Under the pieces are notes generated by a model. The model was not told the DNA's origin, did not search any database, and was given only the letters and a program-made list of their open reading frames with translations. Shown here in pieces: positions 30,249 to 30,536 of a DNA stretch of 31,164 nucleotides. A program made the translations under genes and the position numbers. Positions within the stretch are counted from its first letter, which is position 1, and each line of letters opens with the position of its first letter. The DNA lies in the IMG/VR virus record IMGVR_UViG_2713896902_000001; one strand, given 5' to 3'. This stretch comes from a virus (Duplodnaviria; Heunggongvirae; Uroviricota; Caudoviricetes).

Positions 30249-30536
30249 ATGATAAGGGACAGGAAAGCTGAAGAGCTGGAGTCAAAAGGGCTATACCGGA
30301 GAGCTGCCGCACGATGGGCAGAAGTCATGATGCTGGCAGATGGCGATAAAGAACGTGAACATGCAGCAAACAGACGCTCTGAATGTATCCGTAAGGCGGC
30401 ACGCCCACCAGCAACTACAGACAGATTCGGAGATTTAAGACAGGCAGTTAAGCGGACTCATTCGGCTCTTGGTATGGATGAGGAAGCGAGAGGGTACTTC
30501 AGGCGTTATCGCGATAAAGATTGCCAGAGACAGTAA
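30249..30536 (+). CDS. PerC-family transcriptional activator-like protein (95 aa)
   Basis: N-terminal MIRDRKAEELESKGLYRRAAARWAEVM matches the conserved PerC/Pch-type N-terminal motif as recalled; GAGAGG RBS. Confidence 0.7.
   Translation: MIRDRKAEELESKGLYRRAAARWAEVMMLADGDKEREHAANRRSECIRKAARPPATTDRFGDLRQAVKRTHSALGMDEEARGYFRRYRDKDCQRQ

Follow-up and report, generated by a model that had tools for sequence, protein, structure and literature searches.

Does a PerC-like gene on a mobile island act on the virulence regulons of the host, or does it serve the island that carries it? The question is raised by the stretch of DNA analysed here (the window), a 31,164-nt record of a virus of the Caudoviricetes (IMGVR_UViG_2713896902_000001), in which a perC gene (30249..30536, plus strand, coordinates including the stop codon) stands directly behind a block of short repeats. 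We followed the gene from its protein family to the island around it, then to the repeats and their conservation among related elements, and finally to the activities reported for its relatives.

perC and its protein family

The gene is an intact open reading frame that starts with ATG and encodes 95 aa, as given by the list of open reading frames. A Shine-Dalgarno motif, GAGAGG (30238-30243, plus strand), was read from the sequence 5 nt 5' of the start codon, together with a TATAAT box (30230-30235, plus strand) that has no recognisable -35 element. An earlier note on this DNA had assigned the product to the PerC/Pch family, and the assignment was borne out along nearly the whole protein. The Pfam family PerC (PF06069) matched over positions 1-89 of the 90 of its model (E 2.6e-33, 114.6 bits), well above the gathering threshold of 22.6, and PHROG 994 matched with an E value of 4e-37. 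Alignment to the named members of the family gave 44.3% identity with PerC of EPEC by tblastn (residues 2-89, E 5e-17; 40% in a multiple alignment) and about 50% with PchABC. A similarity confined to the N-terminal family motif, which was checked as KAE.LE.KGLYRRAA.RW, is ruled out by the extent of both the Pfam and the tblastn alignments.

Judging from these matches, the product is a genuine PerC-family regulator, and one that is already annotated in the databases: WP_000617439.1 is 100% identical to it and carries the NCBI pipeline name 'PerC family transcriptional regulator'. With its exact protein named in RefSeq, the gene is already known and adds nothing new by itself. With 95 aa (the family has about 90-104 aa) and a place on a satellite integrated at thrW, it has the small size and the mobile-element location of the family. 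The exact protein sequence occurs in at least 1000 public contigs, and the DNA around perC was found in 867-876 of 5426 complete E. coli genomes (about 16%); carriers of the allele include avian extraintestinal, commensal and wastewater strains of E. coli. A PerC profile of 42 homologs retrieved only 320 clusters at 50% identity from 1.84 billion proteins, and all organism-named homologs and all fetched loci belong to the Enterobacterales. Fourteen positions are invariant across the 42 homologs; in the C-terminal half, conservation is 90% or higher at R52, M74, G75 and R85.

Two of the named relatives come from other genetic settings. PerC (BfpW) of the EPEC EAF plasmid pMAR2 (WP_000405638.1, 89 aa) is the founding member of the family and is 40-44% identical over residues 2-89; it differs in being plasmid-borne, as the last gene of the perABC operon, and in its C-terminal third, which is only 23% identical. 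The 104-aa prophage protein of EDL933, which is PchABC in UniRef (PchA/B/C of EHEC O157:H7, WP_001303878.1), belongs to the same Pfam family, is likewise horizontally transferred and is 48-52% identical over its full length (52% by BLAST). It is encoded by lambdoid prophages, where its neighbours are lysis genes on one side and terminase genes on the other and no origin or primase is near. It has a C-terminal extension of 9 residues, and its LEE1 anti-silencing activity has been shown experimentally.

An EcCIMP1-like satellite at thrW

The earlier note had also placed the gene on an island, which holds: perC is the last gene of an integrated element that spans about 11569-30894. Its left boundary is an 18-nt stretch, CTCCTATTATCGGCACCA (11569..11586, plus strand), which we take to be the 3' end of the tRNA-Thr gene thrW; related islands adjoin tRNA-Thr. 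The right boundary (30879..30894, plus strand) is a degenerate repeat of the left core (TCCTATTATCG-CACCA). As direct repeats, 11581-11633 and 30889-30941 are 77% identical, and the homology to E. coli islands stops at about 30896-30923.

Going by its genes and its integration site, the island is a variant of EcCIMP1, a published phage-inducible chromosomal island (PICI) of E. coli MP1 (Pick, Stadel & Raivio, ISME J 2025, PMC11773190). The two have a 100% identical primase, a 98% identical integrase, the P22-type cargo genes and the thrW site in common, and in both of them a PerC-family gene lies directly behind an array of the repeat GTTGGTTCA; that of EcCIMP1 is EcCIMP1_025 (WP_000617443.1). 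They differ at the right-hand end, where perC of the window is the last gene before attR but that of EcCIMP1 is followed by three more genes, and to the left of the array, where EcCIMP1 has alpA_1 and a small ORF and the window an RHH-like gene. EcCIMP1 was reported to be excised and transduced only on induction of the P22-like helper Kapi1 (PMC11773190).

From left to right, the island starts with a tyrosine integrase gene (11752..12966, plus strand; Pfam Arm-DNA-bind_3, Phage_int_M and Phage_integrase), followed by an int-alpA RNA found with Rfam (13027-13094), which lies between int and a DUF6387 gene (13109-13990, Pfam) and 5' of an alpA-like HTH ORF of 65 aa (14188..14385, plus strand). 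The latter is 76% identical to the HTH regulator gene 3' of int in both EcCIMP1 and a related island (L001), and its assignment is based on homology to alpA of EcCIMP1, named in PMC11773190, and not on a Pfam scan; related loci have a Phage_AlpA ORF at the equivalent position. An AntA antirepressor (14829-15662) and an Ash-family ORF (15831-16898), both recognised by Pfam, precede the primase-helicase gene (18858..21617, plus strand; Zn-ribbon, Toprim and DUF927 in Pfam). Behind the first repeat array come genes for a DUF2824 protein and for P22 gp7-, gp20- and gp16-like ejection proteins (22667-27835, Pfam), and the ORF list adds a lipoprotein (27986-28684) and two minus-strand genes (29233-29989). 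The island has the layout of Gram-negative PICIs: int, alpA and primase/rep are co-directional, and behind them lies an origin in which an AT-rich stretch separates two iteron sets. The P4-like satellite genes psu, delta and sid had no match among the island ORFs scanned against Pfam, and the elements that the island has in common with P4/P1-type immunity are a C4-like RNA and Icd-like and Ash elements.

Several further features of the island and its surroundings may be recorded. Rfam places isrK and C4 antisense RNA at 16212-16289 and 16352-16439, inside the Ash-family ORF, and an 87-aa ORF 3' of them (17082-17345) probably corresponds to the gene annotated as Icd-like in L001; the isrK/C4/Ash region resembles the RNA immunity of the P1 immI or P4 CI type. 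Among the cargo, the gp20-like protein is an Inj_translocase and the gp16-like one a 908-aa protein with an SLT domain; these are virion and ejection proteins encoded by a satellite, and its relative EcCIMP1 has a P22-like helper. PADLOC gave no defence-system match for perC or the cargo. A complete small relative (L003; NZ_CP148430.1, 12,152 bp), circular and deposited as a plasmid, carries an identical perC and a different integrase, together with AntA, Icd, primase, both origin arrays and the RHH gene, in the order perC, att, int at the junction; it is either an excised form that replicates or an assembly of such a form.

Between thrW and the satellite, positions 1-11568 of the window are occupied by a separate element with a serine recombinase (609-1148, minus strand), a major capsid protein E (6155-7183), a 614-aa protein, a Dit-like tail protein (9353-10066) and a DUF6538-type integrase (10147-11481, minus strand). 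It may be another satellite-like element, and the same tandem arrangement with the satellite is found in E. coli WWCOL-236. To the right of the island (30941-31164), a new ORF runs from 31027 to the window end (MPPMKRRKKWLTGRLEYNPALD...) and had a weak PHROG match only. None of the complete E. coli genomes has the whole window, and there the right-hand 240 nt had no joined match.

Paired iteron arrays and the place of perC

The repeat GTTGGTTCA occurs in the window in 12 perfect copies, and in 19 copies at no more than one mismatch, a count reached by 0 of 100 shuffles. The perfect copies fall into two arrays. The first, ori1 (21643..21753), begins 26 nt after the primase stop codon and consists of three iterons at 9-bp spacing, an AT-rich stretch and three inverted iterons. 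The second, ori2 (30092..30212), has three copies on the plus strand at 21-bp spacing, an AT-rich spacer and three on the minus strand at 9-bp spacing (30186-30212), and is an inverted duplicate of ori1 with an identical core of 55 nt. From its end to the perC ATG there are 36 nt. The segment bracketed by the two arrays is 8.3 kb of variable cargo, including the P22-type ejection-protein genes. A simple inversion between the two arrays was considered as the source of this layout and rejected, perC lying outside the bracketed segment.

In satellite P4, a second iteron region, crr, lies kilobases from ori, and the window resembles it in that its second iteron region is likewise kilobases away from the first. 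Both P4 and the described PICI origins differ from the window, where ori2 is an inverted copy of a whole origin with a TATA box facing perC. In ori1, an AT-rich stretch with an iteron set on either side comes directly after the primase (pri-rep) gene, and both this layout and this position match the Gram-negative PICI origin of Fillol-Salom 2018, Fig. 2a (PMC6092414). A second origin array was not found described in the EcCIMP1 paper (PMC11773190), in the cf-PICI preprint or in the literature searched.

The paired arrangement is not peculiar to the window. An ori2 array 5' of perC is also present in L001, in EcCIMP1 and in NZ_CP148430.1, and paired inverted arrays were found in L002, L003, L009-L014, L018 and L031, which comprise EcCIMP1, NZ_CP148430 and loci from Salmonella, Pantoea and capsid-forming PICIs (cf-PICIs). 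The cf-PICIs with paired arrays have a different iteron, TAACCCGCA, and in some Enterobacter islands the two arrays stand side by side.

The primase-helicase is the likely initiator that would bind these iterons. All 11 residues that separate islands of the GTTGGTTCA type from those of the GTTGTCTCA type, in a comparison of primases that are 72-83% identical, fall into the last ~130 aa of the protein and include QRKSPRI versus QG-RV-RE, a pattern that fits an iteron-binding C-terminal domain. Support for such a domain is moderate, because the C-terminal region is variable in general: when the primases were grouped by a criterion unrelated to iteron type, 10 columns of this region discriminated as well.

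A 151-aa gene with an RHH-like N-terminus, read from the sequence of an entry in the ORF list, diverges from perC to the left of ori2 (29534..29989, minus strand) and had no Pfam match. Its upstream region contains a perfect 8+8 palindrome, GTATAACA-C-TGTTATAC (30022-30038). Homologs lie directly left of ori2 in Salmonella (L012, 76%), in Pantoea (L018, 64%) and in L031/L032; the gene is thus kept at this place in satellites of E. coli, Salmonella, Pantoea and Erwinia. This protein was rejected as the iteron binder: EcCIMP1 has the same iterons without the gene, and the iterons also follow the primase gene.

Contigs for six divergent PerC proteins and a single scan of species-representative genomes were used to compare the position of perC. 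The 27 loci with a satellite context come from 9 genera, and in every one of them perC starts 37 to ~1,400 nt downstream of an iteron array, with at most ssb, proQ or one small ORF in between. This order, array and then perC, holds across four primase types and six iteron 9-mers. The iterons beside the perC unit match the origin of their own island, with GAGACAAC in L017/L025/L028 and GAACCAAC in the window, and these loci have a downstream box, TTT(C/T)TGCTTAT..TAT, in common. More generally, three iterons at 9-bp spacing are followed by a T-rich stretch and a TATA box, which read ACCTTTTTGCTTATCTATATAAT in the window, CTATTTCTGCTTATTATG in Enterobacter and TGTTTTGTATATATATACG in others, and which are kept in Pantoea, Enterobacter, Salmonella and cf-PICI loci. 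Where the family occurs outside satellites, its genes stand on the EAF plasmid, as part of perABC, or in lambdoid prophages, in the interval from the lysis to the terminase genes. That Gram-negative PICIs carry PerC homologs has been on record since 2018 (PMC6092414), and the copy of EcCIMP1 was tested in 2025 (PMC11773190). What may be new at this locus is confined to the paired inverted origin-like arrays and the fixed arrangement of origin and perC.

The TATA box 5' of perC is a putative promoter. A consensus scan of the plus strand upstream of perC gave no full sigma-70 promoter, and no intrinsic terminator was found after the gene; the missing sigma-70 promoter would fit an activator-dependent perC promoter, but is equally well taken as mere missing evidence. 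Rfam found no known RNA over 29000-31164. There are exceptions to the common layout: in L012 (Salmonella) and in L030-L032 (Pantoea, Erwinia and Lonsdalea), it is the side of the array with wide spacing that precedes perC or proQ-perC, and in L012 and the cf-PICIs (L009) no gene stands downstream of ori2 and its TATA box. In view of these loci, the box may be an unwinding element of the origin and not a perC promoter. The conserved position of perC next to a satellite origin in 9 genera suggests a function in the satellite rather than the role of a virulence add-on.

Activation, repression or modulation of silencing

The earlier note had read the gene as an island-borne activator of virulence regulons such as LEE, in cross-talk with the host. 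Its family and its island stood, whereas the activator and cross-talk part found no support and is contradicted for the nearest tested relative, EcCIMP1_025, which represses LEE1. In C. rodentium, EcCIMP1_025 silences a LEE1-lux fusion that EPEC perC activates in the same assay (PMC11773190). It is the only tested homolog from the EcCIMP1 type of satellite, and its N-terminus is near-identical to that of the window protein; the LEE1 repression was shown for EcCIMP1_025 itself, not for the allele in the window. For other PICIs the picture is mixed. According to the EcCIMP1 paper, which cites Porter 2005, the PerC-like genes of EcCICFT073 and EcCIEDL933 were without effect on LEE1 fusions (PMC11773190), and Fillol-Salom 2018 states that 'some but not all' PICI-coded PerC homologs activate LEE (PMC6092414). 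Proven activators of LEE1 are PchABC (PMC4764244) and EPEC PerC (PMC11773190).

With EcCIMP1_025 the window protein is 49-54% identical overall, but as a mosaic: 93% over residues 1-28, 37% over residues 29-55 and 31% over residues 56-90. The DNA follows the same pattern. Identity to EcCIMP1 is 93-100% over 30200-30319, a block made up of the 9-bp iteron triplet, the TATA box and roughly 24-28 codons from the start of the gene, compared with 63-93% in the upstream part of the ori2 array and 40-70% in the rest of perC. This comparison puts a recombination breakpoint inside perC. Residues 29-55 are nearest (67-78%) to alleles of another satellite, a cf-PICI and a lambdoid prophage, and the last third has its best match in PchABC, which is 44% identical to the window protein in the central and 43% in the C-terminal part.

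It would be possible to conclude from this that the product is a Pch/PerC-type activator of LEE1 (ler) or of other virulence regulons, through which the island rewires host virulence. It is a full-length member of the family, its central and C-terminal parts are nearer to PchABC than to the repressor EcCIMP1_025, and the activators named above include PchABC, EPEC PerC and, according to the 2018 paper just quoted, some PICI homologs. We nevertheless regard this reading as quite unlikely. Taken over the whole protein, the allele lies about equally far from the proven activators and from the sole proven repressor, and with ~50% identity to both the sequence cannot decide between activation, repression or neither. 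The PICI-borne homologs of CFT073 and EDL933 are reported to be without effect, and that of EcCIMP1 represses. The allele itself is widespread among E. coli of avian extraintestinal, commensal and environmental origin and is found in about one of six complete genomes of the species. In plant-associated Pantoea, Erwinia and Lonsdalea, in which we know of no LEE, its homologs take up the same place near the origin. A PerC annotation on a satellite should therefore not be taken to mean 'virulence activator', as tested homologs activate, repress or do nothing.

An AlphaFold2 model built from the 42 homologs is all-helical, with five helices and a pLDDT of ~85-90 at residues 1-50 and for the three N-terminal helices, the C-terminal part being less certain. 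Among solved structures there was no sequence match to the protein, and Foldseek returned no significant match. A relation to the ANR family was indicated by NCBIfam ANR_neg_reg (NF033650), whose 54 positions are spanned nearly completely by residues 5-52, with 26.1 bits and E 5.5e-6, below the curated cutoff of 32. EcCIMP1_025 scored 31.1, EPEC PerC 18.2 and PchABC 13.6 bits with the same model. The ANR family (Aar, Rnr) likewise consists of small helical proteins tied to H-NS-dependent regulation; its members bind H-NS as well as Ler and reduce the expression of LEE (PMC5570504, PMC10148876).

The product might thus be an ANR-like anti-virulence repressor, as proposed for EcCIMP1_025, that binds AraC/XylS regulators, H-NS or Ler and silences LEE-like regulons. 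The common satellite family and gene position, the near-identity of residues 1-28, the ANR alignment and the silencing of LEE1-lux by EcCIMP1_025, parallel to the repression of LEE by ANRs via H-NS and Ler, argue in this direction. Yet the score is under the cutoff, and the activators EPEC PerC and PchABC also match weakly: the ANR-like N-terminus is common to the whole PerC family, activators included, and cannot alone justify the label of a repressor. Beyond residue 28, behind a breakpoint inside the gene, the identity to EcCIMP1_025 falls below two fifths. The protein is also larger, 95 aa with two extra helices compared with three-helix proteins of ~55-70 aa (Aar 63 aa). On balance we consider an ANR-like repressor unlikely.

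A different mechanism is offered by Pch. Pch activates LEE1 only under silencing by H-NS, StpA, Hha and YdgT and lowers H-NS occupancy, and 88% of the Pch-binding regions lie within H-NS-bound regions (PMC4764244). Against such a role for the window protein, Fukui et al. were unable to co-precipitate H-NS with PchA, and Pch is described there as DNA-binding (PMC4764244); the ANR similarity, too, is below the cutoff and recurs, more weakly, in true activators. Our preferred reading, to which we give a probability of roughly 45%, is that the perC product is a satellite-borne modulator of H-NS-type silencing, made from an origin-adjacent unit when the satellite is active, and that effects on host loci such as LEE are secondary and allele-specific. 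In the mechanism we propose, perC would be transcribed from the origin-adjacent promoter, whose activity would depend on the primase-initiator bound to the iterons, so that induction and replication of the satellite would bring on synthesis of the protein. The product would lack a classical DNA-binding fold, its conserved N-terminal three-helix module resembling ANR and TPR proteins, and, in the manner shown for Pch, would remodel the silencing complexes that H-NS, StpA and Hha form on AT-rich foreign DNA. It would be directed first at genes of the satellite or of the helper phage; effects on LEE or other host loci would be collateral, and the allele would set their direction, be it activation, repression or none.

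The same position beside the origin could also mean that the product serves there as an accessory factor of replication or of the nucleoid, in concert with SSB and ProQ homologs from the same transcript, instead of regulating transcription. The constant neighbourhood of perC and an iteron array, often in one unit with ssb and/or proQ, would fit such a role. However, the characterised members of the family alter transcription of distant loci, and lambdoid prophages (between lysis and terminase genes) and the EAF plasmid carry family members with no origin close by; we therefore hold an origin factor to be highly improbable.

Beyond the modulator of silencing proposed for this allele, a more general scheme may be put forward tentatively, as one that we think possible but on the doubtful side. 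In it, perC would belong to the conserved genes near the origin of enterobacterial PICI-type satellites, with a unit that starts at initiator-bound iterons, and would not be an accessory virulence gene. The origin of these satellites would be bipartite, made of two inverted arrays that are adjacent or kilobases apart, and the initiator would double as the switch for a PerC-type counter-silencer on induction, the second array being a P4 crr-like element and a hotspot of cargo insertion. If this wiring of origin and perC is true, it would give a testable reason for so many satellites keeping perC, and the space between the two origin copies would be the place where such satellites load their cargo.

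Some loci carry perC twice. Two divergent perC genes are present in Pantoea L018/L019 (995-1267 and 10001-10282), in the arrangements ori1-proQ-perC1 and ori2-ssb-perC2. In L006-L008 the two genes lie at 10001-10288 and 14051-14353, the second ~4 kb downstream of the first and adjoining a TAACCCGCA array, of a type unlike the island's own origin.
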